Positions 3,501 through 63,557 are shown, counted from the stretch's first letter. The stretch is 64,000 nucleotides of DNA from Eubacteriales bacterium (GCA_045612545.1 JAZKZH010000007.1:57378-121377), one strand, 5' to 3'. Notes: generated by a model not told the origin, from the letters alone. Program-made: numbers and translations.

Positions 3501-4310
3501 ATGAAGCCTATTTTTTGCACCGATACTACCCACGATAAGCACAGCACCTCCATTCACGGAGAAGAGTTTGTTTTCTCCACCGTATCCGAAACCACCAAAA
3601 AGGAGATCAACGCCTCGGTGAACAAGGCCGCAGAGTCCTTGAAAAAAGCGGAGCTGCCCACCTTTCTCCAAGCGCTTCGTTTTGCGGGACTTTGCGCTGC
3701 CGTGGTCTCCCTGATTTCCATGTTTGACGGAGAGCAGCTCCGGATCGCCTATTTGTTGCTTTGCATCGCAAGCGTAGGCGCTTACATTGGAATTTCCTTT
3801 TACGAAAACAAACGGAAAAAGGCGTTTTTGCAAAGCGAATCCGCTGACGTGCTGGCAGCCGCCATGGAAGAAGCCACCCGCCGCGTAGATGCAGAATTGG
3901 AGATTCCTCCCACCGCAGTGGCCGCAGACGTGATCTGCTTCCGCTACAAGGAAAAGGACGGCAAGCGGGAGGTCGTCAAGGCTATGCAGGGCGCGCAGTA
4001 TCTCAACGTGGAGATCTGCCTTTACAAAAACGATACCCATTTGTTTATTGCGGACATGGAGCGTGTGTTCGCCTTCCCCTTGCAGGGTATGAAGGGCATC
4101 ACCGCCGTGCGCGAACCCATCACCCTGTTCCAATGGAACAAGCCCTGTCCTCCCTCCGAGTACGGCTTGACCCATACCAACCGCGGGATCCCCACCGAGG
4201 TTCACTATATTTTGGAATTTACCGCCGGAAACGAGGACTACGGCATTTACTTCCCCTGCTACGAGCTGGAGGCTATCAAAAAACTCACCGGACTTTCCGA
4301 AACCGTTTGA
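3501..4310 (+). CDS. hypothetical membrane protein, paralog A of a tandem pair
   Basis: Starts MKPIFCTD, has two central TM helices, and ends with the block YILEF..GNEDYGIYFPCYELEAIKKLTGL shared with the next gene. Confidence 0.65.
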   Translation: MKPIFCTDTTHDKHSTSIHGEEFVFSTVSETTKKEINASVNKAAESLKKAELPTFLQALRFAGLCAAVVSLISMFDGEQLRIAYLLLCIASVGAYIGISFYENKRKKAFLQSESADVLAAAMEEATRRVDAELEIPPTAVAADVICFRYKEKDGKREVVKAMQGAQYLNVEICLYKNDTHLFIADMERVFAFPLQGMKGITAVREPITLFQWNKPCPPSEYGLTHTNRGIPTEVHYILEFTAGNEDYGIYFPCYELEAIKKLTGLSETV

Positions 4311-4329: not shown

Positions 4330-8030
<3,701 letters not shown>

Positions 8031-9055: not shown

Positions 9056-9156
9056 GGCAAAAACTCCTTGTTTTCCTTTTCTTTTTCATAGCATACCACA
9101 TTTTTTTGTATTTTGCAAGATGGCAGAAAAATTCTTCAAAAAAATCAAAAAAAGAC

Positions 9157-9185
9157 TTGACAAGCGCATCCTTTTGTGCTATACT
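9157..9185 (+). promoter_or_regulatory. sigma-A type promoter for the tRNA-Thr/tRNA-Tyr pair
   Basis: TTGACA at 9157-9162, a 17-nt spacer ending TGc, and TATACT at 9180-9185. Confidence 0.55.
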
Positions 9186-17517: not shown

Positions 17518-17918
17518 GTCATCCTGAGGGAGCCGCGAATGCGGCGAGTCGAAGTTTTGCTTTTTGAAATTGCCCGTTGTCTTTGGATACATAGTTTCTT
17601 TTGCAGCAATTTCTAAAAAGCAAAACCGTAAGGGATCTCCTACGAGTCTGATCTACCCCTACAAAGGCAAACTTACATTTTTTGTGATAAAACAGTTCTT
17701 TAGCTTTGGAAAGGTACATCAGACTCTCAGTAGATCCCGCCTGCGGCGGGTTTGCTTCGTTCGCTACGCTCACCTACGCAAAACTTCGACGTGCGCGGAG
17801 ATGACTGCAATACGTAGCCACAGGGAATACAATCCGCGCGTGCTCAGGATGACCAAGTCGGCGAAACAAAACTACGCATAAGACAAAAGCCCTGCGCCGA
17901 CTTGGGATGAGGTTCCTC
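17518..17918. repeat. composite non-coding repeat island with nested inverted repeats
   Basis: The unit GTCATCCTGAG...GTCGAAGTTTTGC at 17518-17560 recurs inverted at 17778-17853. An inner inverted repeat is GAGTCTGAT (17644) / ATCAGACTC (17718). The 38-nt unit at 17689-17726 matches 51885 and 52231 in reverse. A solo MITE-like end GGGATGAGGTTCCT sits at about 17905-17918. Confidence 0.7.
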
Positions 17919-17947
17919 TTGACAGGAACATCCCTCTTTGCTATACT
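17919..17947 (+). promoter_or_regulatory. sigma-A promoter (TTGACA-17-TATACT) for the 5-gene operon
   Basis: TTGACA at 17919-17924 and TATACT at 17942-17947. Confidence 0.55.
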
Positions 17948-32382: not shown

Positions 32383-32459
32383 GTGGGTGTAGCTCAGTTG
32401 GTTAGAGCACTTGCTTGACATGCAAGGGGTCGTTGGTTCAAGTCCATTCATCCACACCA
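32383..32459 (+). tRNA. tRNA-Val (anticodon GAC)
   Basis: Acceptor GTGGGTG/CATCCAC (one G-U pair); D arm GCTCAGTTGGTTAGAGC; anticodon stem CTTGC/GCAAG with loop TTGACAT; T loop TTCAAGT; encoded CCA. There is one T-stem mismatch. Confidence 0.85.
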
Positions 32460-35808: not shown

Positions 35809-35848
35809 CTCGCAAGGTGTCGACGCTTCACACCCTTTCATCCACACC
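35809..35848 (+). other. degenerate copy of the 3' half of tRNA-Val (att-like remnant)
   Basis: It is identical at 30 of 40 positions to 32419-32458, and the last 12 nt TTCATCCACACC are perfect. Like the real tRNA, it is followed by a terminator hairpin (35852-35897). Confidence 0.55.
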
Positions 35849-35851
35849 GGA

Positions 35852-35897
35852 AAAGTCTTGAGATCGTTCTGTTTTCAAGACTTTTTGTTTTTTTTCT
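35852..35897 (+). terminator. intrinsic terminator-like hairpin
   Basis: Stem AAAGTCTTGA / TCAAGACTTT with a 13-nt loop, followed by TTGTTTTTTTTT. Confidence 0.55.
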
Positions 35898-35961
35898 TGA
35901 CAGGAACGCCGTTCTATGGTAAACTACGTAAAAAGATCCCCCCCTTTTTCGGAGGCTAATT

Positions 35962-51839: not shown

Positions 51840-51879
51840 TAAGAAAACCGAAGCCTGCTTTAGCGGGCTGAGGGGTATA

Positions 51880-52270
51880 GCACAAGTCTGATGTATCTTT
51901 CCGTAACGAAAGAACTGTTTTGTTAGTAACGGAATGGAAATGCTGTATCGAAAGGGATGGCTATACCCTTTTGACATCGTCGGGGTCGGAGTACCATTCC
52001 TCTAAATAAGTACTGTTCTCCCTGCCTGCCAACCCGCAGGGTTGGTATGCTCAGAGGTGACAACCCAATCCATGCTGTCACCCTGAGCGGAAAAGGCGTG
52101 GTATGCAAAAGCGTCTTGCTCTGCAAAACGAAAAGCCTTTGGAGTCGAAGTTTTGCGGAAGTAGTCGTCGCAACGCGACGAAGGATGGAGCAAAACCAAG
52201 GGATGCCTGCATCCCGCAGGGGTATAAGACGAGTCTGATGTATCTTTCCGTAACGAAAGAACTGTTTTTG
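51880..52270. repeat. pair of ~43-51 nt direct repeats bracketing a 0.3 kb non-coding segment (dispersed repeat family shared with 17.5-17.9 kb)
   Basis: 51880-51922 AGGGGTATAGCACAAGTCTGATGTATCTTTCCGTAACGAAAGAACTGTTTTG matches 52219-52270 AGGGGTATAAGACGAGTCTGATGTATCTTTCCGTAACGAAAGAACTGTTTTTG. The unit GTCACCCTGAG...GTCGAAGTTTTGC at 52077-52156 matches 17518-17560. Confidence 0.8.
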
Positions 52271-52387
52271 AAGCGACCCGGAACCGAAGGCAACGGTTTT
52301 TGGCGCGGCAAGGATGGTTTCGCCGTTGCAAGGCCTTCTCTCAAAACCAAAAGCCGCCACGGTTGTGACGGCTTTTCTTCATGCTAT

Positions 52388-53419
52388 TTACAGCGCGAAA
52401 AAGGTCTTTCCGGAGGGAAGGGTAACGGTTTTGCTGCCCTGCAAGTCGGAAATCACGAAGCCTTCCTCCGCTTCGGGGCGGAGTGTGGGCAGGGGCTTAC
52501 GGCACAGCACCTCCAAAATATCGCAGGCAACAGCGGATGCGGTAGGCAAAGAGCCTGCGCCTTGACCGTAGAATACCGTCTCGCCCACAGCCTGACCGGT
52601 AACGGAAACGGCGTTGAACACGGCACTGACAGCAGAAAGAAGACTTTGAGCAGGCACCAAGTGGGGCGCTACCAAAATACGCACCTTGCCGTCGATCAGC
52701 TCTGCAGAGCCCAACAGCTTGATGGTGTAGCCCAGTTCACGAGCTTCCTGGATATCCCTGTCGGTAACGGAGGTAATGCCCTCCAGGTGGGGAATTGCGG
52801 TGTAAGGAATGTACTTGCCGAAGGCGAGACCTGCCAGAATACAGATCTTACGGGCGGTGTCGTAGCCCTCCACGTCTGCGGTGGGATCCTGCTCTGCATA
52901 TCCCAGCGCCTGGGCTTCCTTCAAGGCCGCCTCCATGGTGCATCCCGTCTCTCCCATGCGGGTGAGGATGTAGTTGGTGGTCCCGTTGAGGATGCCGCTG
53001 ATCTTGACGATCTTATCCGCGTTAAAGCAATCTCGCAAAGGACGGATGATGGGAATACCGCCGCCCACGCTGGCCTCGTAGAGATAAGAAACGCCCTGCG
53101 CGTAAGCGATCTCCTCCAGCTCCTTGCCGTGAGCGTCCACCACCGCCTTATTGGAGGTGACCACGCTCTTGCCCGCAAGCAAGGCCGCCTTGCTGAACTT
53201 ATAGGCGATGTCGACGCCACCCATGGTCTCCACAACCACCTCTACGGCGGGATCTGCAAGGATCATATCCAGATCGGTGGTAACACGATCCTCCAGCGGA
53301 TGACCGGGGAATTTGCGCAGGTCAAGGATGTATTTGATATCTACCTCGGAATTGTGGCGAAGCACCTCGTAAACGCCGCCGCCAACCACGCCGAAGCCAA
53401 GAATTGCAATAGATCTCAT
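52388..53419 (-). CDS. hom: homoserine dehydrogenase
   Basis: NAD-binding motif ILGFGVVGGGV, plus SNKAVVA, EASVGGGIPII and GILNGTTNYILT blocks. The ATG at 53419 follows promoter TTGACA-17-TATAAT on the minus strand. Confidence 0.9.
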   Translation of the reverse strand: MRSIAILGFGVVGGGVYEVLRHNSEVDIKYILDLRKFPGHPLEDRVTTDLDMILADPAVEVVVETMGGVDIAYKFSKAALLAGKSVVTSNKAVVDAHGKELEEIAYAQGVSYLYEASVGGGIPIIRPLRDCFNADKIVKISGILNGTTNYILTRMGETGCTMEAALKEAQALGYAEQDPTADVEGYDTARKICILAGLAFGKYIPYTAIPHLEGITSVTDRDIQEARELGYTIKLLGSAELIDGKVRILVAPHLVPAQSLLSAVSAVFNAVSVTGQAVGETVFYGQGAGSLPTASAVACDILEVLCRKPLPTLRPEAEEGFVISDLQGSKTVTLPSGKTFFAL

Positions 53420-53545
53420 AAACAAAAACGCCTTTCTGTCTCAAAGGTATTGTCTTATTATATGCGGTTTTTTTCTTTTTGTCAAGGGGAAATATTTACG
53501 CAAAGCTTTTTCCGTCCATACTCTGTTTAAAAAAGGAGCGAGGAT

Positions 53546-54949
53546 ATGAAATTAACCTACCAAGAAACCGTTGACAAGCTGAAAAACCAGTTCAAGGATT
53601 GCGCCGATTTCCAGCTTGGCGAGATCACGGCGGGAGAAAACCGCTTTGTGTTGGCCTATTTTCGGGGGCTTTGCGACCGCACGGCGGTTTCGGATTCCCT
53701 CTTGCGCCCCATGCTGGAGTGCTTGCGGCAGAACGACTTCCAAGGGAATTTCGGCGAGGTGATCCGAAACGGAAGCATGACGACCCCCAAGGATTACGGA
53801 GAGATCTCCGCAGGAATTTTGCGAGGAGACGCTTTTTTGGGGGTAGAGAATAAAAACGGCGTGTTTTTCTGCATGGCGCCGGTGTACGCCGGGGTGTCCC
53901 GCGCCGTGGATCAGCCCGACACGGACGTGACCATGCGGGGCCCTCGGTTGGGCTTTGTGGAGGACACGGACAAAAGCATGGTGCTGCTGCGGCAGTATCT
54001 CCGCACCGGCGACTTGAAATTTACCTCCCTGTATCTGGGATCGGTCACCCACACCCGCATCACCATCGCCTATCTGGAAAGCCGCGCCGATATGGGTTTC
54101 GTGGAGGAGCTGAAAAACCGCATTTCCGCCCTGGAGGCCTCCACGGTGATGGATTCGGGGTATTTGGAATTGCTTTTGCAGGGAAAAAAGAACACCATTT
54201 TCCCCTTGATGGGAAGCACGGAAAAGGTGGACAAGGCCGCCGCCAAGCTGTTGGCGGGGAGGGTGGCTTTGTTGGTAGACGGCTCCCCCTTCGTATTGAC
54301 GGCACCTTACGTATTTACGGAGAGCCTGCAATCCCCGGAGGATTATCTCCGCACCCCCTATTACGCCACCGCCATTCGCTGTTTGCGGTTGCTTGCCTTG
54401 GTGGCTTCCGTCTTGTTACCCGCCTTGTTCGTGGCGGTAGGAGAATTTCACCCGGAGCTTTTGCCGAAAGCCCTGGCAGAAACCCTGGCTTCCTCCCGAG
54501 AGGGGTTGCCCTTTTCCCTGTTTTGGGAATGCTTTCTGTCTCTCGTGGTTTTTGAGCTGGTGCGAGAGGTGGGAGTGCGAATGCCCCGCACCGTGGGAGA
54601 CGCGGTGGGCTTGGTGGCCTCCATCATTTTGGGGGATGCGGCGGTGCAAGCGGGGCTTGCCTCCACGCTGGTGATCATGGCAGTAGCCCTCTCTGCGGTG
54701 TGCGCCTTTATCGTGCCCGCCATGATGTACGCCACGGTGCTTTTGCGGTTTTCCTTTTTGTTTTTGGGCGGATTCTTCGGATTGCCGGGGATGTGCGTGG
54801 GGCTTGGCGTTTTGCTATTCTCCCTTTCTTGCTTGGAAAGCTTCGGTGTGCCGTATCTGTCGCCCTTATCCCCTTTCAAGCCCAAGGGGCTGGAGGATAT
54901 GCTACTGACGATTCCAAAGAAAACGCTGGGAAGAAGGGAGGATCTGTAA
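53546..54949 (+). CDS. GerA-family spore germination protein (A-subunit / SpoVAF-like)
   Basis: 467 aa, with a soluble N-terminal domain and a C-terminal 5-TM region laid out as in GerAA/SpoVAF. RBS AAAAAGGAG. Confidence 0.75.
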   Translation: MKLTYQETVDKLKNQFKDCADFQLGEITAGENRFVLAYFRGLCDRTAVSDSLLRPMLECLRQNDFQGNFGEVIRNGSMTTPKDYGEISAGILRGDAFLGVENKNGVFFCMAPVYAGVSRAVDQPDTDVTMRGPRLGFVEDTDKSMVLLRQYLRTGDLKFTSLYLGSVTHTRITIAYLESRADMGFVEELKNRISALEASTVMDSGYLELLLQGKKNTIFPLMGSTEKVDKAAAKLLAGRVALLVDGSPFVLTAPYVFTESLQSPEDYLRTPYYATAIRCLRLLALVASVLLPALFVAVGEFHPELLPKALAETLASSREGLPFSLFWECFLSLVVFELVREVGVRMPRTVGDAVGLVASIILGDAAVQAGLASTLVIMAVALSAVCAFIVPAMMYATVLLRFSFLFLGGFFGLPGMCVGLGVLLFSLSCLESFGVPYLSPLSPFKPKGLEDMLLTIPKKTLGRREDL

Positions 54950-54950
54950 A

Positions 54951-55595
54951 ATGGCTTTTTTTGCCCCCTTTGCGGTAACCTTTGCCACCCTGCTTGTCAC
55001 GGAAGATCTCCTCTCCCGCCTTGTGGGAGGGATGATCTGCCTTCTGTTTTGCTTTCTCGGAAGATTCCGCGGCGGCAGACCCTCCCCGTGGCTTGCTCCG
55101 CTGTTTTTGATTTCCTGCTTGTTTCGGCTGTATCCGCTGTGGAGCTTTTACGGAGAGACTTTGGGGGAAATGCGGGGCGGAATTTTGTTTTTCCTTACCT
55201 TGGCGGCGGTATTTTTCATGGTAGCAAGGCAGAAGGATCCCGTTTTGGCATTATCCCGCAGCAGCGTTCCCTTTGCGCTTACAGCCATAGGATTCGGACT
55301 TTGGGCAGCGGCAAAAGGGATCCCGTGGGGAATCGTTGCTCCCCCATATACCTCCCTGCTCATGATCTTGCTTTGCGCATTGTCGGGAATGCTGATCCTC
55401 CCCACAGAGGGAAGCCTTCTGCTGACCTACGCCGGAGTGGGGGCGGGGATCCTCCTTGGATCGTTTCCCTACGGGTGGGAGCAGGGGCTGTTTTTGGGGT
55501 TTCTTTCCCCTATGGTGGCGGCGACGGAGCTGGGCATTGTTTGCGGAAAAAAAGCATATACTTTACAAAAAAGAAAAAAGCCCCGAAAGGAATGA
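54951..55595 (+). CDS. hypothetical polytopic membrane protein
   Basis: Starts 1 nt after the germination-protein stop codon. It has about 6 hydrophobic segments and a Lys-rich tail. Confidence 0.6.
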   Translation: MAFFAPFAVTFATLLVTEDLLSRLVGGMICLLFCFLGRFRGGRPSPWLAPLFLISCLFRLYPLWSFYGETLGEMRGGILFFLTLAAVFFMVARQKDPVLALSRSSVPFALTAIGFGLWAAAKGIPWGIVAPPYTSLLMILLCALSGMLILPTEGSLLLTYAGVGAGILLGSFPYGWEQGLFLGFLSPMVAATELGIVCGKKAYTLQKRKKPRKE

Positions 55596-55978
55596 CCCCC
55601 ATGACCTTACAGCAGGAAACGCTGCGGGAGACCTTGCAGGACGAAAACGGGCAGGTCACGGTGATCGTGAATCTGTCCTTCCCCGCCCTTCACAAAAAGA
55701 AAGACAAATCCGCCCTTTGCAAGCCCTTCTGCGATTTTTACCGCAAGGCAGCAGAGGGCTTCCGCGCCTTTGCGGGGTCAGAGCTTCACCGCAAGGCACA
55801 ATCCAACCCGCCGGGAACTCCGCCCTGCGGAGCGGTTTTGCGGTATCGGCACAAGGAGACGGAGGACGCCTTTGTCATCACACTCTCCGGCTCTGTGTTC
55901 GACGGCTTTACCGCCCACCCCATTCGGGAAGACGTGCGTGTGTGGGAGAAGAAAACGGGGCTGTTGAGAGGATTTTAG
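55592..55978 (+). CDS. hypothetical protein (128 aa)
   Basis: ATGA overlap with the upstream stop codon. This is the in-frame tail of ORF 55049-55978; the N-terminal two-thirds of that ORF overlaps the membrane-protein gene and is rejected. Confidence 0.55.
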   Translation: MTPMTLQQETLRETLQDENGQVTVIVNLSFPALHKKKDKSALCKPFCDFYRKAAEGFRAFAGSELHRKAQSNPPGTPPCGAVLRYRHKETEDAFVITLSGSVFDGFTAHPIREDVRVWEKKTGLLRGF

Positions 55979-56228
55979 GAACCTCATCCACGCGCTTGCG
56001 CCTTCCCCCATTCCCCAAAAGGGAAGGTGAAGCTCGCTACGCTCGCGGTAAAATAGATTCGTACAGTCTCTCGCCATAGCTTTGGCTACAAACGATTGAA
56101 AGCATTTGCCCGCACACCGCAGGTGTGCTCTTGCCTTCCCCACATTGTGGGGAAGGGGGACCGGCGCGGGGAGATCAAAGCAAAAAAACAGTTCTCGCTA
56201 TTCCCCCGCGATGGTGGATGAGGTTCCT
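55977..56228. mobile_element. MITE-like non-autonomous element, copy 1 (252 bp, perfect 15-bp TIRs)
   Basis: Left TIR AGGAACCTCATCCAC at 55977-55991 and right TIR GTGGATGAGGTTCCT at 56214-56228. The internal blocks CGCGCTTGCGCCTTCCCCCATTCCCCA and GAACGATTGAAAG..TTTGCCCGCACACCGCAGGTGTGCT are shared with copy 2. There is no ORF. Confidence 0.75.
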
Positions 56229-56263
56229 ACTGATGAAAAACAGCCGTCGGCGCGGTCGCCCGC

Positions 56264-56291
56264 AAAAAACTCCCGCTTTTGCAAGCGGGAG
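56264..56291 (-). terminator. intrinsic terminator (minus strand)
   Basis: Stem CTCCCGCTT / AAGCGGGAG with a 4-nt loop. On the minus strand it is followed by TTTTTT. Confidence 0.7.
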
Positions 56292-56299
56292 CACGATTC

Positions 56300-56701
56300 T
56301 TATACGCAAACAGTCTTTCGCAGTTTTCTGAACAGCGCGACCAAAAGATCCAACCCGATCAGACAGGCGTAAAACACAAAAACGAACAGCAGGGCCCAAT
56401 ACAGCATGGCGGAGGTCCGAATCGTATCCAAAAGGGCGGCCATCCCCCACAACGCCCCGCTGAAAACCAAATGGGCGCAGGCGGTGACAAGGTCGGACAC
56501 CCACGGAGCCCCTTCCCGGGGTTTCATCCAAAAGAAGGCAGGGGCGCCTACCGCCAAAACGGCAAGCAAAAGCACCAAGGACGCAACGTCGCCGATCGCC
56601 TTCCCGTGATAGAGAAGAATCAATACAGCAACCGCGGCATGAACCGCCAGGGGATGCACTGCGGGAAGCAACCATTTTTGAAAGCTTTTGGTCTTTTTCA
56701 T
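56300..56701 (-). CDS. hypothetical membrane protein (133 aa, 4 TM helices)
   Basis: RBS AAAGGAGA is 8 nt upstream, the product is strongly hydrophobic, and a terminator follows. The overlapping 197-aa ORF in another frame is rejected. Confidence 0.6.
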   Translation of the reverse strand: MKKTKSFQKWLLPAVHPLAVHAAVAVLILLYHGKAIGDVASLVLLLAVLAVGAPAFFWMKPREGAPWVSDLVTACAHLVFSGALWGMAALLDTIRTSAMLYWALLFVFVFYACLIGLDLLVALFRKLRKTVCV

Positions 56702-56845
56702 TCTCGTCGTCTCCTTTCCTCGGCTTCATGATACCAAAAAAAGGCAGGAAAGTCAACCTTGTTCCCAAAAAACTTTACAAACGGTTTGCACCAAAGCAAA
56801 AAGATCCTCCTCCCGGTTGGGGGAGGAGGACGGAATGCGATTGAA

Positions 56846-57472
56846 TTAGTCCTTCTGGGGAGCGATGACGATCTTACGGTCTGCGCCCTCGCCTACGGAG
56901 TAGGTGGTAACGCCCTCGATCTTCTGGCATTCTGCGTGAACGATACGACGCTCGTAAGCAGACATGGGATCCAGTGCAAAAGCACGGTGGTACTTCAGCA
57001 CCTTCTCCGCCATACGGCGAGCCATACCGCAAAGGGTATCTGCACGCTTTGCGCGGTAGCCCTGTGCATCCACGGAAACACGGTAGTAGCCGGGTCTGCC
57101 AAGGTTTGCAGAAAGGGTTGCCAGATACTGAACGGAGTCCAGCACGTCCCCTCTTCTGCCGATCAAGGCACCCAAGCCCTGACCAACCACGTTCAAGGAA
57201 ACCTCCTCATCCGTCTCGGAAACCACCTCAACGGAAGCGTTCAGTCTCATATTTTCAATCAACTTCTCCAAGAATTCCACGGCACGGATGGCGGGAGTTT
57301 CGGGGATGAATACGCGCACCTTTGCCTCAGTGGCGCCGATGCCGAACAAGCCCTTCTTGCCCTCCTCCAGTACCTCATGCTGAACCTGATCGGGGGTGCG
57401 ACCCAGCTCAGCCGCGCCGTTTTCCAGCGCGATGGCAACCGTCTTACCGGTTGCAATTACTTCTCTTATCAT
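56846..57472 (-). CDS. jag: Jag/KhpB RNA-binding protein (Jag-N, KH and R3H domains)
   Basis: LIGRRGDVLDSVQYL is the KH GxxG region, and the C-terminal ERRIVHAE is the R3H region. It lies directly downstream of yidC, as is usual. Confidence 0.88.
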   Translation of the reverse strand: MIREVIATGKTVAIALENGAAELGRTPDQVQHEVLEEGKKGLFGIGATEAKVRVFIPETPAIRAVEFLEKLIENMRLNASVEVVSETDEEVSLNVVGQGLGALIGRRGDVLDSVQYLATLSANLGRPGYYRVSVDAQGYRAKRADTLCGMARRMAEKVLKYHRAFALDPMSAYERRIVHAECQKIEGVTTYSVGEGADRKIVIAPQKD

Positions 57473-57489
57473 AAATAAACCTTCTTAAC

Positions 57490-58902
57490 TTATTCGTCGT
57501 CTTCCGCAGAGAGCATCTCAATGGAAGTGGGCTTGCGATAAGGCAGATCCGCCTTCTTTTCCGAGGGCTTGGGACGTGCAGTCTCAACATGAGATGCCGC
57601 AGTACCGCTGCTGACCTCGAGATCTGCGTAGCTGTCGTCGTCCTCGTCTACCTCAATGGTAATAACCTTCTTCTTTTTGCCCTTGCTCTTAGCTACAAGC
57701 TCCTTAGCCGCCGCCTCCAGCTCCTCTTGGGTAAAGCGGGGGATGGGGTAGAACTTGTTCATCAGGGGCATCTTCACCATGTTCAGCAGAGTACGCCATA
57801 CCCAGTAGCAACCGATTGCCGCCGGCACCATCAAAGAAAATACGGTGGAGATCAGAGGCATACCCACGGTCATAAACAAACCGGGCTTGGCGGGCTGGCC
57901 GTCCATACCCGTCTGGGCAGGCTGGGTCTTCATGGTGATCTTGTGGCTCAGGAAAGAGGTCAGGAATACCAGAATGGGGATGAGAAGCAACGCCCAGTCG
58001 TGCCAGGTGTCGTTTTCGTCGAAATCAAAGGAGGGCTGGTTCAAAAGATTGATGCCAAACAGAGTAAAGTCGGGCATCATATCGGTGAAGTAAGCCTTCT
58101 CCCCGTTTTCATCCTCCACGTAGAGGAGATAGGGGTTCTCGTAGCTTGCGGGCAATGCGCCTGCTTCCTTCAGGGTGGCTACGTACTCCTCGCCGAAATT
58201 GGCAAAGACGGCGGCCACTGCGGTCTCACGGTAGCCTGCGCTGCCGTTCGACTTAATGGCGTACTTGTCAAAACCGTTTTCCAGCTTCAAGCTCTCTTTG
58301 TTTTCCGCTTCGGGATCCTTGTACTGCAACTCGGCGCCCAGCTTCACCTGCTCCTTCCAAAGAAGAGCGTCGGCCTCCTTAGCGGCGGCGTTGTCCTTCA
58401 CCAGATTCTCACGAATGTGATCCAGATAGTCAAAGGAATACTGGGTGACGATGGAAGCAAAGTCCTTGCCCTCGTAATCGGAATGCTCTTCCGTTACAAC
58501 CGTCTGAATCTCCGTTACCGCTTGATCGGTAAAATTGGAGGAATAGGTGATAGGCTCACGGACGATGGCAAATACAATGAAGATGACGGGGAGCATGATC
58601 AAAAGAGGCAGACAGCCGGAAAGAGGACTTACCCCCTCCTGCTGGTGCATTTCGTTCAGCTCAAGCTGCATCTTCTGCTGAGTAGCACGGTCGTTACGAC
58701 CTGCATACTTCTTGCGGATGGCGTATTCCTTGGGGCGAACTCTCGCCATAGCGATCTGGGATTTCTGCTGCTTAATGGCCAAGGGAAGCAGAATGATCTC
58801 GAAAGCCAAAGCAAAGAAGAACAAGCCGAAGAAATAGGAATTCTGCGAGATCCACACGCAGGCCTTCATAACGTAACTAAAGGGAACGTAAATGAAATCC
58901 AT
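57490..58902 (-). CDS. yidC: YidC/Oxa1-family membrane insertase with large internal insertion and acidic tail
   Basis: Conserved blocks LLPLAIKQQKS, MQLELNEMHQQEGVSPLSGCLPLLIMLP and PAAIGCYWV. It is 470 aa, against about 260 aa for typical Firmicute SpoIIIJ/YqjG. Confidence 0.85.
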   Translation of the reverse strand: MDFIYVPFSYVMKACVWISQNSYFFGLFFFALAFEIILLPLAIKQQKSQIAMARVRPKEYAIRKKYAGRNDRATQQKMQLELNEMHQQEGVSPLSGCLPLLIMLPVIFIVFAIVREPITYSSNFTDQAVTEIQTVVTEEHSDYEGKDFASIVTQYSFDYLDHIRENLVKDNAAAKEADALLWKEQVKLGAELQYKDPEAENKESLKLENGFDKYAIKSNGSAGYRETAVAAVFANFGEEYVATLKEAGALPASYENPYLLYVEDENGEKAYFTDMMPDFTLFGINLLNQPSFDFDENDTWHDWALLLIPILVFLTSFLSHKITMKTQPAQTGMDGQPAKPGLFMTVGMPLISTVFSLMVPAAIGCYWVWRTLLNMVKMPLMNKFYPIPRFTQEELEAAAKELVAKSKGKKKKVITIEVDEDDDSYADLEVSSGTAASHVETARPKPSEKKADLPYRKPTSIEMLSAEDDE

Positions 58903-58911
58903 AACTTGTTT

Positions 58912-59163
58912 TCAAACCTTTCGATTGTTCGGGGGAATCTTTTTTCTCCGACGCTCGGGAACGGGATCAAACCCGCTTCCCCCCCAGGGATTACAACGTA
59001 AAAGTCTCTTGACAGCCAAAAAAATGCCGACGAACACCCCACGCTTTTCGATTGCCTCGATAGCATATTGGGAACACGTCGGCATATAACGACAGCAAGA
59101 CGGTAATGCCGGAGAAATATGCTTTTGGTAGAACCGTATCAACGCAATGCAGATACGCTTCAT
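58912..59163 (-). CDS. yidD: membrane protein insertion efficiency factor YidD
   Basis: [11 protein letters not shown]...[19 protein letters not shown] is the YidD signature. Confidence 0.9.
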
Positions 59164-59531
59164 AACGAATCCTCAAGAAGGGTTGCCTTGCCCAATAAAT
59201 CTCCCATCTCGTCGCGGATCACGGTAAACTCCGCAGTACAAGCGGGCTGCTTTGCAACAATAACGATCAAATATCCATTCTTAAGATTCGGCAAGTGGTA
59301 GCGGTATGCTTCCCGCAGGAGACGCTTGACCCGGTTGCGCACCACGGCCTTCCCCCGCTTTTTGGAAACAGTAAGTCCGAGCAAGGTACGGTCCTTCTCA
59401 CGGCTTTTCAGGACGTAAAGCACCATTGTGGAAGAAGCCACACTCTTCCCCTTGCGGTAAGCACGGGAAAACAAGTGATTCTTCTTCAACGGGTGGAGCT
59501 TATACTTCCGTCTTTCCATAAGTTTCATCAA
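59160..59531 (-). CDS. rnpA: ribonuclease P protein component
   Basis: A basic ~120-aa protein. [28 protein letters not shown] is the RNR motif region. It has a 4-nt overlap with yidD and lies directly downstream of rpmH. The exact Met (59531, 59528 or 59519) is uncertain. Confidence 0.88.
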
Positions 59532-59559
59532 ACCGCCTTGCTCGGTAAATCATAGCAGA

Positions 59560-59694
59560 TTAATAAGTGAGCTTATATCTGCCCTTAGCGCGTCTTCTCT
59601 TGAGAACGTTTCTTCCGTCAGCTGTAGCCATTCTCTTGCGGAAACCGTGCTCCATCATTCTGTGTCTCTTCTTGGGCTGGTAAGTACGCTTCAT
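59560..59694 (-). CDS. rpmH: 50S ribosomal protein L34
   Basis: Not in the ORF track (44 aa). My minus-strand translation from the ATG at 59694 gives [44 protein letters not shown] followed by TAA at 59562-59560. Confidence 0.92.
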
Positions 59695-60019
59695 ATTTCT
59701 TTACACCTCCGTGTCGGTTTTTTATGCCTCGTCTTACCGTGAAGACGGGTTGGCAATTTTGGGATAGGAAAAAAGGCATATTCGCACATCGTAGTATGCC
59801 AATCATTATTATTATCATATTTTCTCCCTTTTGTCAAGCGTTTTTTCAAAAAAAGAAGGGATTCTCCCCGGTTTCTCCGCCTCTGGCAGGGGAAATTCAC
59901 ACAAAAGTCGCAAATCCTTCTTGACATTTCACGGAAAACAAGCTATCATAGATAATAGGATATCTCTGTCTATAAGGGGTACTCTTGCCAAAATCAAAAT
60001 CCTTTCCGGGAGGATATCT

Positions 60020-61312
60020 ATGGAAAAATTATATATCAAAGGCGGAAAGCCCCTGCAGGGCGTGATCGAAACGGGAGGCATGAAGAATGCCGCTGACCCC
60101 ATCTTTTTTGCCACTCTTTTGGTGGGAGACGTGTGCGTGATCGAGAACGTTCCCGATGCGGCGGATATCCGCCACGCCTCCGAGATCCTCACCGAGCTGG
60201 GTGCCGTGATCGCTTACATGGGAGATCATACTTATCAGATCGATACCCGTTACGTAAACCGTTCCAGCATCCCCAACGCATTGGCAGCCAAGCTTCGTTC
60301 CTCTTACTATCTGTTGGGAGCAGGCCTTGGCAGATTCGGCGTGGTAGAGACGGGTTATCCCGGCGGCTGTGACTTCGGCTCCCGCCCTATTGACCAGCAC
60401 GTGAAGGGCTTCCGCGCCCTGGGCGCCTCCGTGGAGGAGGACGGAACGGAGTGCCGTATCCGTTGTCGTGCAGAAGAGGGCTTGAAGGGCAATTCCGTAT
60501 ATCTGGACGTTCCCTCCGTGGGTGCTACCATCAACATCATGCTGGCCGCTTGCAAAGCGGAGGGCACTACCGTTATCGACAACGCCGCAAGAGAGCCTCA
60601 CATTGTTGACGTGGCTTCCTTCTTAAACAGCTGCGGCGCAAACATCATGGGCGCAGGTACCCCCACCATCAAGATCGTTGGCGTGAAGGAGCTGTTCGGC
60701 AGCCGTTACGCCGTAGTGCCGGATATGATCGAAGCCGGCACCTACATCATGGCGGCCGCGGCCACCAAGGGTGAGGTCACCGTTACCGGCGTGATCCCCC
60801 GCCATTTGGAATCCTTGACCGCAAAGCTTTTGGAAATGGGCGTGAACATTGAGGAGGGAGACGACTCCATCACCGTCCATGCACCCACACCGGATGCACC
60901 TCCCATGCAGGCCGTCCGTGTGAAGACAGCCTTCTATCCCGGCTTCCCCACGGATATGCACCCCCAGATCGCCGCCCTGCTTTGTCTTGCAGGGGGAGAA
61001 AGCAGATTGACGGAATCCGTTTGGGCCAACCGTTTCCAATACGTTCCCGAGCTGCAGCGTATGGGTGCAAAGCTTTCCGTTTCCGGCAGTGACTTGATCA
61101 TCACCGGTGTTCCCCGGCTCAACGCCGCCAACGTCCGTGCCGTTGACCTGCGAGCAGGAGCAGCCATGGTGATCGCCGCCCTGGCAACAGAGGGTACCAC
61201 CATCGTGGACGATATCCATCATATCCTGAGAGGATACGAGAGAATCGTGGAAAAGCTCAACGCCGTAGGCGCAGACGTGCGCTTGGTGAAGCTGCCCGAT
61301 CCCATTACTTAA
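60020..61312 (+). CDS. murA: UDP-N-acetylglucosamine 1-carboxyvinyltransferase
   Basis: The start MEKLYIKGGKPLQG is preceded by GGGAGG. The active-site loop is YPGGCDFGSRPIDQH (catalytic Cys), and FPTDMHPQ is present. Promoter TTGACA-17-TATCAT is at about 59922-59950. Confidence 0.9.
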   Translation: MEKLYIKGGKPLQGVIETGGMKNAADPIFFATLLVGDVCVIENVPDAADIRHASEILTELGAVIAYMGDHTYQIDTRYVNRSSIPNALAAKLRSSYYLLGAGLGRFGVVETGYPGGCDFGSRPIDQHVKGFRALGASVEEDGTECRIRCRAEEGLKGNSVYLDVPSVGATINIMLAACKAEGTTVIDNAAREPHIVDVASFLNSCGANIMGAGTPTIKIVGVKELFGSRYAVVPDMIEAGTYIMAAAATKGEVTVTGVIPRHLESLTAKLLEMGVNIEEGDDSITVHAPTPDAPPMQAVRVKTAFYPGFPTDMHPQIAALLCLAGGESRLTESVWANRFQYVPELQRMGAKLSVSGSDLIITGVPRLNAANVRAVDLRAGAAMVIAALATEGTTIVDDIHHILRGYERIVEKLNAVGADVRLVKLPDPIT

Positions 61313-61339
61313 CCAAGTAAATCTACTATTTGGAGTTTT

Positions 61340-63127
61340 ATGAAGAAGAAAAACAACATCGAAGAAATTATTGAACGCAAAAAAGCAAAAAAAGAAAAGA
61401 ACGCGGCCAAAAGCGGGGAGCATTTGGTGGAAAAAATCGCCCCCAAGCCCCAGAAGGCCGAAAAAAAGAAGCCGAACACCGTGAAGATCATCCCCTTGGG
61501 CGGGGTGGACGGTATTGGCATGAACATGACTGCCTTTGAATACGGCGAGGATATCCTCATTGTGGATTGCGGCATCGCCTTCCCCGGGGAGGATATGCCC
61601 GGCGTTGACGTTGTGATCCCGGATTTCACCTATCTGGTGAAAAACGCCGATAAGGTAAAAGGTCTGGTATTGACCCACGGTCACGAGGATCACATCGGCG
61701 CAGTGCCTTATTTATTAAAGAAGCTTCCCTGCGAGGTTTACGGCACCCGCTTGACTCTGGAGATTCTGGACGGCAAGCTGCAGGAGCATAACATCCGCAC
61801 CGAGGATCTTTTTGAGATCCGTGCGGGAGAAATGATCACCATCGGGGAGTTTGACGTGGAGTTTATCCACGTGAACCACTCCATGCCCGATGCGGTTGCG
61901 CTTTGCATCACCACCCCCTGCGGACGGATCGTCCACACCGGGGACTTTAAGATCGACTTTACCCCCATCGGAACCACCCCAATCGATCTGGCGCGGTTTG
62001 CCGAGCTGGGCAGAAAAGGAGTCAAGGTGCTGATGTGCGATTCCACCAATGCGGAACGCCCCGGATACACCCCCTCGGAAAGCACGTTGAACGCTTCCTT
62101 TGAACGTATTCTCCATGACGATACCCGCCGTGTGGTGATCGCTACCTTCTCCTCCAACGTATACCGCGTTCAGCAGATTCTGGACGCCTGCGCCAAGGCG
62201 GACCGCAAGGTGGCTCTCACCGGCAGAAGCCTGCAGAACGTGGTGCGCGCCGCCCGTCATTTGGGATATATCAACATCCCCGAGGGGCTGATGATCGATA
62301 TTTCCGAGTGCAAGTACTTCCCTCCGGAAAAGCTTGCCATCATCACCACCGGCAGTCAGGGCGAGCCTATGAGCGCTCTCTACCGCATGGCCTTCGGGGC
62401 ACATCCCATGGTGGCCTTGTCCTCCACGGATCTGGTGGTGCTTTCCGCCTCCTGCATTCCCGGCAACGAAAAGCTGGTGACCAAGATCATCAACGAGCTT
62501 TACAAGCTGGGGGTAGAGGTGATCACCGACCGTACCGATGACGTACACGTTTCCGGCCACGCCTGCAGAGAGGAGCTGAAGGTGCTTCACAGCTTGGTGA
62601 AGGCGGACAGCTTTGTTCCGCTCCACGGAGAATACAAGCATTTGGTGGCCCACGCCAATCTGGCCAAGTCTCTTGGTACCAAGCCCCAGAACATCCTGCT
62701 TCCCGAGGCGGGGCGGATCATTGAAATGGATCGCCGCGGCATCCATTGGGGCGACACCGTGGAGTGCGGCAGAGTGATGATCGACGGCGCAGGCGGCGCA
62801 GGATTGGAAACCGCCGTCCTCCGCGATCGTATCAATCTGGCAGAATCCGGAATTCTGTTTATTTCCGCAGGCGTTACCTCCGAAGGGGAGCTTGCCATCC
62901 TGCCGGAGATCGTCTCCCGCGGGTTTGTCTACGTGAAGGAGAACGAGGAGCTTTTGCAGTATCTGGAGGATATGGCAAAGAAGTTCCTGCAGAAATCTCT
63001 GGACAGAGGTCTTACCGATCCTGCCGCCTTGGGCGCACGGCTGAAGGACGATATGTCCAACACCGTCTACCAAAAAACCAAGCGCAAGCCCGTGATCGTC
63101 ACCTTGATCACCGAAGTGAATATGTAA
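61340..63127 (+). CDS. rnj: ribonuclease J with Lys-rich N-terminal extension
   Basis: The metallo-beta-lactamase motif is LTHGHEDHIGAVPYL, followed by beta-CASP and C-terminal domains. About 45 aa of basic low-complexity sequence precede the conserved VKIIPLGG. Confidence 0.9.
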   Translation: MKKKNNIEEIIERKKAKKEKNAAKSGEHLVEKIAPKPQKAEKKKPNTVKIIPLGGVDGIGMNMTAFEYGEDILIVDCGIAFPGEDMPGVDVVIPDFTYLVKNADKVKGLVLTHGHEDHIGAVPYLLKKLPCEVYGTRLTLEILDGKLQEHNIRTEDLFEIRAGEMITIGEFDVEFIHVNHSMPDAVALCITTPCGRIVHTGDFKIDFTPIGTTPIDLARFAELGRKGVKVLMCDSTNAERPGYTPSESTLNASFERILHDDTRRVVIATFSSNVYRVQQILDACAKADRKVALTGRSLQNVVRAARHLGYINIPEGLMIDISECKYFPPEKLAIITTGSQGEPMSALYRMAFGAHPMVALSSTDLVVLSASCIPGNEKLVTKIINELYKLGVEVITDRTDDVHVSGHACREELKVLHSLVKADSFVPLHGEYKHLVAHANLAKSLGTKPQNILLPEAGRIIEMDRRGIHWGDTVECGRVMIDGAGGAGLETAVLRDRINLAESGILFISAGVTSEGELAILPEIVSRGFVYVKENEELLQYLEDMAKKFLQKSLDRGLTDPAALGARLKDDMSNTVYQKTKRKPVIVTLITEVNM

Positions 63128-63288: not shown

Positions 63289-63521
63289 AGGAACCTCATC
63301 CACGCGCTTGCGCCTTCCCCCATTCCCCAGAGGGGAAGGCAAGAAACTCCCTCCGGGAGTTGAGAATTGTCGTATGCCCCTGCGGGGCGGAATAGGATCT
63401 GCTGATTCTCCCGCATGACCGATATCAGCGAACGATTGAAAGACTTTGCCCGCACACCGCAGGTGTGCTGACCTTCCCCTCTGGGGAAGGAGGACCGCCT
63501 TCGGCGGTGGATGAGGTTCCT
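63289..63521. mobile_element. MITE-like non-autonomous element, copy 2 (233 bp, perfect 15-bp TIRs)
   Basis: AGGAACCTCATCCAC at 63289-63303 and GTGGATGAGGTTCCT at 63507-63521. Both subterminal blocks are shared with copy 1, while the centre differs. Confidence 0.75.
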
Positions 63522-63530
63522 TTTTTACAC

Positions 63531-63557
63531 AAAAAAACCGCCCGCAGGCGGTTTTTC
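63531..63557. terminator. bidirectional intrinsic terminator
   Basis: AAAAAAA, then stem ACCGCC / GGCGGT with loop CGCA, then TTTTT. Confidence 0.7.

Follow-up and report, generated by a model that had tools for sequence, protein, structure and literature searches.

What is the structured, non-coding sequence that lies at positions 55977-56228 in a 64,000-nucleotide stretch of DNA from a Eubacteriales bacterium (GCA_045612545.1 JAZKZH010000007.1:57378-121377), and how did it come to be there? The whole of this stretch is called the window here. The original prediction, which was made from the sequence alone, described copy 1, as this sequence is called, as an element that resembles a MITE (miniature inverted-repeat transposable element), with a second full copy and one solo end elsewhere in the window. 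The reading that we favour, with a little better than even confidence, is that copy 1 is a head-to-head pair of non-coding arms of about 90-120 nt, and that the arms belong to an undescribed, lineage-restricted mosaic repeat family that is similar to BOX, REP and BIME elements, is spread or homogenised by processes that act on DNA and makes stable hairpins where genes end. The family has a modular architecture and a restricted distribution, its stems covary without wobble bias, its copies bear the marks of module swapping, breakpoints fall at arm ends, and phages carry it with an orientation bias.

Copy 1 is 252 bp long and has the perfect 15-bp inverted ends that were predicted for it: 55977-55991 reads AGGAACCTCATCCAC, and 56214-56228 is the exact reverse complement of this. 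The three hairpins that had been noted in it are located at 56001-56027, 56112-56128 and 56134-56156. Copy 2 spans 63289-63521 (233 nt) and has identical perfect 15-bp ends. The AGGAACCTCATCCAC 15-mer has 4 exact matches in the window and one match with 2 mismatches (17903-17917, minus strand); when up to 3 mismatches are allowed 8 matches are observed, a number reached by 0 of 100 dinucleotide shuffles. The pattern CCTTCCC-N2-14-GGGAAGG occurs 4 times where 0.01 occurrences are expected, and when the two full copies are folded and compared with shuffled sequences they give z values of -6.3 and -9.3. The interior had been described as free of open reading frames (ORFs), and copies 1 and 2 differ by indels, so that they share no common reading frame. 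Their left ends are identical over 41 nt and a central block over 39 nt; outside the identical blocks there are both substitutions and indels, and the column identity is 77%. By this comparison copies 1 and 2 are diverged members of a family and not a duplicated segment. A segmental duplication that holds the only copies is not what is found, as the copies have diverged and the family occurs in 11 metagenome-assembled genomes (MAGs), on orthologous contigs and on 40 viral contigs. The solo end that was placed at about 17905 is present, with 13 of its 15 bases matched, but it is not a bare end. It belongs to a truncated arm at 17853-17917 on the minus strand, to which a repeat of another family is joined.

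What is repeated is one asymmetric arm of about 100 nt and not the 252-bp pair. When all hits are oriented by their end, the order is AGGAACCTCATCCACC, a first hairpin (H1), GGTCCCCCTTCCCC-loop-GGGGAAGG as a second hairpin (H2) and usually CGAGGC-H3-GGGAAA. Spelled from the 5' side, the arm reads (AGGAA)CCTCATCCACC, H1, CCC, H2 in the form CCTTCCCC-loop-GGGGAAGG, and CGAGGC-H3-GGGAAA, and some arms have a fourth hairpin (H4), GCCCC-UNCG-GGGGC. H1 occurs in a short form of 10-30 nt and in a long form that consists of a stem and a loop of 32-35 nt, and C(UUCG)G and C(UGCG)G loops are found in H3, H4 and H1. The 15-bp terminal inverted repeat (TIR) appears twice because two arms face outward, each showing its conserved 5' end. 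The arms in the window are arranged as follows.

55977-56228, no strand assigned: doublet copy 1, two inverted outward-facing arms around a central block.
55977-56048, plus strand: left arm of copy 1, with the end AGGAACCTCATCCAC at 55977-55991 and a short H1, GCGCTTGCGC, at 55992-56001.
56001-56027, plus strand: H2 of the left arm of copy 1, CCTTCCCCCATTCCCCAAAAGGGAAGG, followed by a degenerate H3 at 56032-56048.
56091-56110, plus strand: central conserved block of copy 1, AACGATTGAAAGCATTTGCC, common to doublets of other genomes.
56112-56228, minus strand: right arm of copy 1, with its end at 56214-56228 and a long-form H1 at 56160-56215 (7-bp stem, 32-nt loop).
56134-56162 and 56112-56128, minus strand: inner hairpins of the right arm of copy 1, H2 and H3 (GCACACC-GCA-GGTGTGC), respectively.
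63289-63521, no strand assigned: doublet copy 2, 233 nt, with its centre at 63431-63450.
Left arm of copy 2: the end at 63289-63303, H1 at 63304-63313, H2 at 63313-63339, H3 at 63345-63361 and H4 at 63376-63388.
Right arm of copy 2: H3 at 63452-63468, H2 at 63472-63496, H1 at 63494-63508 and the end at 63507-63521.
17853-17917, minus strand: truncated arm, with the end AGGAACCTCATCC (13 of 15 matched), a long-form H1 with the stem CCAAGTCGGCG and a 31-nt loop, and no H2.

Full-length elements (doublets) are 184-405 nt long and consist of two inverted outward-facing arms around a centre of 60-90 nt that contains GAACGATTGAAAG. Besides window copies 1 and 2 they are found at L130, L138, L124, L131, L127, L136, L227 and L235, where L numbers denote the loci or contigs that were compared and the carrier genomes were covered as pieces of 8-20 kb. 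One and the same asymmetric centre is present in the doublets of L130, L138, L124, L131, L227 and L235, and doublets that have it lie at unrelated sites of several genomes. Solo arms outnumber doublets and are well conserved. Tandem arms also occur, as in L129 with three units of 62 nt, and in L126, L134, L121 and L124. Many copies are extended outward as AAT/AGG or GCAAG/AGG (the slash marks the arm end), and in L124 the arm end is preceded by four 12-nt AGGAACCGCAAA repeats (5233-5298; also 4189-4230), so that the end is not sharp. These 12-nt tandem repeats look like iterated binding sites. The opposite ends of several doublets (L131, L124, L130, L127 and L136) have uncompensated mismatches, which indicates that the ends are conserved as sequence and not as pairing partners.

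The last point bears on the suggestion that the doublet is a stand-alone gene of about 230-250 nt for a structured small RNA (sRNA), present in two paralogous copies. The very stable predicted fold with its long closing stem and the conserved internal blocks would suit such a gene. However, the closing stem has uncompensated mismatches in relatives, half-elements, tandem halves and phage halves are common, a search for a promoter-like site in or beside copy 1 or copy 2 found none, and there is no Rfam match. We regard this explanation as close to refuted.

The hairpins bear on how the arms are maintained. The 31 distinct H1 segments have 23 different 5' arms between them, and an H1 5' arm forms a mean of 6.5 contiguous pairs with its own 3' arm versus 1.4 with the 3' arms of other copies. 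In an alignment of 22 H1 sequences 93.5% of the cells are paired, compared with 74.8% in shuffles (0 of 500 shuffles reach the observed value) and 20-45% when the partner is slid. Changes on both sides affect 5 of the 9 H1 pairs (37 cells), and one-sided changes of the G-U type are essentially absent. Over all hairpins G.T and A.C mismatches are equally rare, few in number and not clearly biased. An A.C that recurs at the fourth pair of H1 is due for the most part to a single related stem. The absence of the wobble bias that is typical of RNA points to a symmetric constraint that acts at the DNA level. This pattern is not that of an RNA drifting under structural selection and fits palindromes that are maintained or replaced as DNA. 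The loops of long-form H1 (32-35 nt) are homologous between copies (GAGA.CAAAGCAA...) and are sometimes inverted relative to the arm, as in window 56172-56203 compared with the right arm of L138; palindrome-mediated loop inversion would give that pattern.

Whole hairpins have been swapped between copies that are otherwise nearly identical. When copy 1 is compared with the orthologue at the identical site in L227 and L228, the interior and the right flank are identical, the left H1 differs (L227 and L228 have a long hairpin there), and in one H2 a common H2 variant, in reverse complement, has taken the place of the tip. The first 41 nt of the left arm of copy 1 are identical to window copy 2 instead, which points to exchange within the genome. 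Three MAGs share one site (L132, L133 and L140) with flanking proteins that are 93-96% identical, and at this site H1 reads GGTG/CGCC, GGCG/CGCC and GGTG/CACC, respectively, and H3 is replaced entirely. In a single phage two 290-nt repeats are 96% identical and differ only in their H1 hairpins, which are unrelated. The arm ends also coincide with breakpoints: the synteny between L121 and L134 stops 4 nt from an arm end, a block of arm, gene and arm is placed differently in the two, and short-read contigs break inside or beside arms.

Is the doublet then a MITE? By published criteria (PMC10969869, PMC3049150) the label is right in part. The doublets are non-coding, structured, interspersed repeats with inverted ends, their sizes of 252 and 233 nt lie below 500 bp, and there are many copies in the 11 MAGs. 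TIRs of about 4-30 bp are expected, and those of the window copies are perfect over 15 bp, although they arise from two inverted copies of one module. The strict definition fails on target-site duplication (TSD) and on AT-richness. No convincing TSD had been seen in the window, and this extends to the family: at 11 doublets the best flanking direct repeat has a mean of 1.5 nt versus 1.0 nt for mismatched flanks, and the length of words shared around 78 single modules gives a null result, with no TSD. Isolated cases of flanking repeats are found at L273 (15 nt) and L240 (11 nt). The GC contents of the window doublets are 55.6% and 59.7% versus 53.6% for the window, that is, the doublets are above the window and not AT-rich. 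In a strict MITE the ends are also those of an autonomous insertion sequence of the same host. No transposase with matching ends had been seen in the window, and in the pieces of 8-20 kb that were read no locus has an inverted pair of ends 0.7-3 kb apart and no transposase lies by any copy. No IS200-like motif was found in the ORFs across 238 kb of related DNA, a Pfam search of 19 ORFs that flank copies gave no transposase, recombinase, Y1 protein or integrase (the ORFs are housekeeping genes or have no known function), and a screen for multi-copy ORFs found none. It has been noted that direct repeats may decay with age under the MITE definition, and BOX, ERIC and REP are treated alongside MITEs in a looser usage (PMC10969869), in which the arm doublets can be called MITE-like.

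A classical type II MITE would be a mobile deletion derivative of an insertion sequence (IS): a DDE transposase encoded elsewhere would bind the 15-bp ends and move the 252-bp doublet by cut and paste, and solo arms would be decayed halves. The perfect inverted ends of both window copies, the stable fold within fewer than 500 bp, the same-centre doublets at unrelated sites of several genomes, the AAT and ATT flanks at 3 of 11 doublets, which may be a 2-bp duplication, and the tolerance of the definition for age-decayed direct repeats (PMC10969869) are all consistent with it. We nevertheless consider it unlikely. TSDs are not above chance and the doublets are not AT-rich, arms that stand alone or in tandem are more frequent than doublets and are well preserved, and H1 differs between the two arms of a doublet. 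The outer AGGAA is not kept in phage copies and the 12-nt tandem repeats blur the end. Inverted ends at an IS-like spacing and a transposase are lacking in all the loci.

In a second transposon-based possibility the arms are single-stranded DNA hairpin substrates of an HUH (Y1) transposase, as in REP/RAYT or IS200/IS605 systems. A role as HUH substrates would explain single arms without TIR or TSD, the hairpins and the strand bias in phages. The unit is indeed based on hairpins and has no TSD, its solo, tandem and inverted arrangements are like REP and BIME clusters, and copies are strongly co-oriented within phage genomes. However, H1 is not conserved even in one genome, unlike the end hairpins of REP and IS200 elements that are read by an enzyme, and H1 and H2 are dissimilar. 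In addition, the 238 kb contain no ORF with an IS200-like motif and the 19 neighbouring ORFs no Y1 transposase, and RAYTs are mainly proteobacterial. This possibility is quite improbable in our view, more so than a classical MITE.

The phage copies were found in a scan of IMG/VR viral contigs that used the H2 module alone as the query, which gave 61 instances on 40 contigs. In every instance CCTC[A/T]TCCACC and a variable H1 lie ahead of H2 (core CCTCWTCCACC-H1-H2), and the AGGAA that forms the outer part of chromosomal ends is not kept. In viral stretches with multiple copies 31 of 32 copies have the majority orientation of their contig. A Shine-Dalgarno sequence and a start codon (ORF of at least 50 codons) follow within 80 nt in 27 of 43 distinct instances in the sense direction versus 8 of 43 in the antisense direction (p = 0.002). 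The genes after viral copies include those for tape measure, major head protein, portal, large terminase and helicase. No ORF family is common to more than 7 of the 40 motif-bearing phage loci, so the phages are not one lineage. Sister modules of like design and different sequence are found in tandem with the main module. One of them, CCCCTCAGTC-variable hairpin-CAGCTCCCC-loop-GGGGAGCC-YATAAGGAAGGTG, stands twice in tandem in L243 (about 900-1040), with the main module on one side and the start of a phage gene on the other, and these units are absent at the same site in L263. Further sites of sister modules are the 3' flanks of L270 modules and L126, L125 and L238, and other sister variants have CCCTCCC...GGGAGG as H2.

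In the bacterial chromosomes both arms of both window doublets, and most of the solo arms that can be assessed, have their 5' end toward the 3' end of the adjacent gene. Both window doublets sit between convergent genes, beside terminator-like hairpins that are given here as context.

56269-56292, minus strand: site that resembles an intrinsic terminator, belonging to the convergent 133-aa gene and lying just beyond copy 1.
63533-63556, plus strand: hairpin that resembles a terminator, preceded by an A-run and followed by a T-run, just beyond copy 2 and between it and the convergent gene for a protein with a B12-binding domain.

The main rival of the favoured reading, with which it is compatible, is a functional cis-acting transcript element, in which CCUCAUCCACC-H1-H2 would be an intercistronic or 3' untranslated region signal for the host machinery (a leaky terminator, a processing or stabiliser site, or a signal of the antitermination type) and chromosomal doublets would be two such signals for convergent genes. 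Its function would be the reason that host and phages have it in common and that unrelated phages have it in the sense orientation. The sense bias and gene-boundary position in diverse phages argue for it, as do the sense orientation of both arms of both window doublets downstream of the adjacent gene, the YTT or T-run that often follows H2, the C(UUCG)G and C(UGCG)G loops of H3, H4 and H1, and the retention of structure while sequence varies. On the other hand, G.U is not more frequent than A.C in the stems and changes on one side only hardly occur, which differs from RNAs that are selected for structure. Bacterial copies lie in both orientations, one of them antisense inside an operon at the site that is conserved in three species (L132, L133 and L140). 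Canonical terminators already flank both window copies, and no Rfam family is matched. We hold this reading tentatively, as clearly less probable than the favoured one and more probable than any of the transposon-based explanations.

There is also a bolder reading. The twin-hairpin core (CCTCWTCCACC, a hypervariable perfectly paired hairpin, CCC, and CCTTCCCC/GGGGAAGG) might be a new class of element, found both in a clade of Clostridia from gut and rumen and in many of their phages, which are unrelated to one another. At the boundaries of genes it would be recognised in one orientation by a host factor, its renewal or spread would be the work of a DNA process that is specific for hairpins and corresponds to no known transposase type, and the sister families (CCCCTCAGTC-hairpin-CAGCTCCCC/GGGGAGCC) would share the design. 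This is speculative and, to our minds, rather improbable, though somewhat less so than a classical MITE.

Under the favoured reading, the mosaic repeat family would have been spread and homogenised at the DNA level and not by cut-and-paste DDE transposition. Copies would probably recombine or undergo gene conversion with one another, be duplicated in tandem or in inverted orientation, be repaired with a palindrome as the template and travel on phages, and an enzyme that acts in trans may be a further participant. The arms would usually be oriented so that the transcript of a gene enters them, which is pronounced in phages and at both arms of both window doublets. Once transcribed they would probably serve as twin-hairpin punctuation at gene ends, with protection of 3' ends or weak attenuation of transcription as the effect. 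This role, which is suggested by position and stability, would explain why the arms are tolerated.

Several observations weigh against this reading. Bacterial copies taken together have no sense bias (11 versus 16), and a T-run follows H2 in a minority of copies only. A clean empty site that would record a gain or loss was not recovered, so that mobility is inferred and not observed; at the copy 1 site the relatives have repeats of other kinds or a rearrangement. For copy 2, a doublet is present in one relative too, another contig stops too soon, and in relatives at a greater distance the neighbouring genes are others. The AAT/...ATT flanks of 3 doublets out of 11 may be what is left of a 2-bp AT duplication, and a cognate transposase may lie elsewhere in the genome, since the carrier genomes were covered as pieces. 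Finally, the strong sense bias in phages could mean that the module is primarily a functional RNA or transcription signal and not a selfish repeat.

The site of copy 1 has a history of its own. The TAG stop codon of the 55592-55978 gene occupies 55976-55978 on the plus strand, and its AG is formed by the first two bases of the arm, as had been pointed out. The accompanying suggestion, that the insertion reshaped the C-terminus of the protein, is contradicted by L227 and L228, which hold the doublet at the same position but stop upstream of it; the change is a point mutation of the stop codon. L227 and L228 read ...TTG AGG TGA TTTT/AGGAACC and the window reads ...TTG AGA GGA TTT TAG/GAACC. The window lineage thus lost TGA (now GGA, 55970-55972) by point mutation and gained two extra codons (GF) before the TAG that the arm completes. 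For the 128-aa protein 17 homologues were found, the 16 full-length ones were aligned, and the closer ones end in ...GLLR, ...GLLQ or ...LRK. A 98%-identical orthologue (L221-L223) is without the doublet and without the neighbouring 133-aa gene, and L224-L226 and L233 have other repeats at the places that correspond to copy 1. By these comparisons the copy 1 locus is a hotspot of repeat turnover. In the surroundings (window 52103-63127) the order is GerA, two small unknown genes, the doublet, a 133-aa membrane protein, jag, yidC, yidD, rnpA, a gene of the EPSP-synthase family and RNase J. This resembles the origin-proximal rnpA-yidC-jag cluster, with no dnaA adjoining among the ORFs examined.

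How widely is the family distributed? A scan of one genome per GTDB species, with the end and the first hairpin arm as the query, gave 20 loci in 11 MAGs, all of which are uncultured Oscillospiraceae, Clostridia or Eubacteriales by title and many of which come from ruminant or other animal gut. An nhmmer census gave 61 arm matches in the 238 kb of related DNA. No arms were found in 923 kb around more distant RNase J genes (metagenome relatives, at most 61% identity) or in 43.6 kb of two relatives whose RNase J is 81-83% identical. By these searches the family is lineage-restricted. It does not belong to a known structured RNA family in Rfam 15, which gave no match in the window at the gathering threshold, only chance-level matches for the copy 1 region at E<=10, and no match at the gathering threshold in 23 related loci (about 50 copies). 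A BLASTN search with the doublet against plasmids and GenBank phages found nothing, and the phage-type core as the query gave one borderline match, to an unannotated faecal "Bacteriophage sp." record. A viral scan with the bare 15-mer returned 120 single chance matches and was uninformative, and a search of the literature by sequence returned unrelated primers only.

Which known systems resemble the arms? In Streptococcus pneumoniae and S. suis the BOX elements (boxA-boxB(n)-boxC) are modular, intergenic and non-coding; their terminal modules pair with each other around an interior that varies, modules are found alone as well as in clusters, the transcripts are predicted to be highly base-paired, and no transposase is known (PMC3049150, PMC10969869). 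The arms are like BOX in all these respects, and BOX is among the closest analogues. No relationship in sequence is known between them. An arm doublet is the same module inverted and BOX has two different terminal boxes, and the arms are GC-rich, have one hypervariable hairpin and have a core that phages carry with an orientation bias.

The arms also occur as singlets, tandem clusters and inverted pairs in extragenic DNA without TSD, as do the REP, BIME and REPIN elements. Those elements are palindromic extragenic units that are single, tandem or inverted, have no TSD, often lie at the 3' ends of genes or between convergent genes, and stabilise upstream mRNA. A REP is a single hairpin of about 20-40 nt that keeps its sequence throughout a genome and goes together with a RAYT gene, whereas an arm has about 50-120 nt and two or three hairpins, H1 stems differ completely within one genome or phage, the arms of a doublet do not co-vary, and no RAYT was seen in the locus pieces read. 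PATE, which is derived from IS200/IS605, has two similar subterminal hairpins that are read by TnpA, no TIR or TSD, and strand-biased insertion. The absence of TSD and the strand bias in phages agree with PATE, but H1 and H2 are dissimilar, H1 is variable, and the 238 kb contain no TnpA-like ORF.

The Correia elements and NIMEs of Neisseria and the SPRITE of pneumococcus are, like the arms, structured repeats of small size that lie where genes meet and have inverted ends or hairpins that resemble terminators, and they can donate promoter parts or transcript-processing sites. We know of no sequence similarity between them and the arms. Correia elements have 26-bp TIRs and a TA duplication, in contrast to the arms, which are without duplication, come from another taxon and have another architecture. 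A parallel exists at the truncated arm at 17.9 kb, which is joined to an unrelated palindromic repeat and adjoins a promoter-like site with a TTGACA -35 box; the arm end may contribute to the promoter context there. The site itself is a perfect TTGACA-17 nt-TATACT (window 17919-17947) that begins 2 nt past the end of the truncated arm, and the start codon of the gene that follows is about 36 nt downstream. Similar sites with TCTTGACAGGAAC are found at 35895-35925 and 9155-9185, the latter upstream of tRNAs.

Integron attC sites keep structure over sequence, as the arms do, and the outer AAC...GTT triplets (AGGAAC...GTTCCT) are a further likeness. An attC site has RYYYAAC...GTTRRRY boxes and 57-141 nt, and forms arrays of site and cassette ORF with an integrase nearby. 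An attC identity was rejected, as the boxes here are RRRRAAC/GTTYYYY against the consensus RYYYAAC/GTTRRRY, the doublets of 184-405 nt have no cassette ORF, and no co-oriented arrays of site and ORF and no integrase were seen. Xer/dif sites, a CRISPR repeat or solitary repeat unit, a retron, a 6S or other sRNA gene and an anti-Shine-Dalgarno mimic were also rejected on sequence.

To our knowledge, there is essentially no catalogue of the interspersed repeats that uncultured Firmicutes of the gut and rumen carry. The arms break assemblies, mark synteny breakpoints, supply a stop codon and adjoin a promoter, and they therefore affect MAG quality and annotation in this clade. The core of about 50 nt, which is found in diverse phages and in host chromosomes, could be a marker that links phages with hosts and, if functional, would be a new signal of transcript punctuation. 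The wholesale replacement of H1 between identical flanks offers an unusually clean system in which palindrome turnover can be studied.

Some further features of the window and of the compared loci are the following. A second, unrelated repeat family with the blocks AGTCTGATGTATCTTTCCGTAACGAAAGAACTGTTTT and GCAAAACTTCGAC is found at window 17518-17852, 17689-17726, 51871-51921, 52144-52171 and 52218-52268, and also at L227 1-81 and L233 about 4600-4900; in L233 it occupies the place of window copy 1. The 17.5-17.85 kb region of the window folds as a long imperfect palindrome (z -6.3). Two of the compared loci (L121 6290-6510 and L134 4335-4574) have a conserved promoter-like TTGACA-17-TATATT and a leader of about 90 nt that ends in a terminator hairpin, upstream of unrelated-looking genes without a Pfam match. 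This stretch has no Rfam match and could be a small RNA or a leader of an unclassified type. A tRNA gene has a second copy of its 3' half 3.4 kb downstream with 74% identity (32383-32456 and 35812-35861), and the interval, which contains one gene for a 1025-aa DUF4855/F5_F8_type_C protein and no integrase, may be an old integration scar. Finally, window 12883-12973 matches a glycine riboswitch aptamer with 35.5 bits, where the Rfam threshold is 32 bits.

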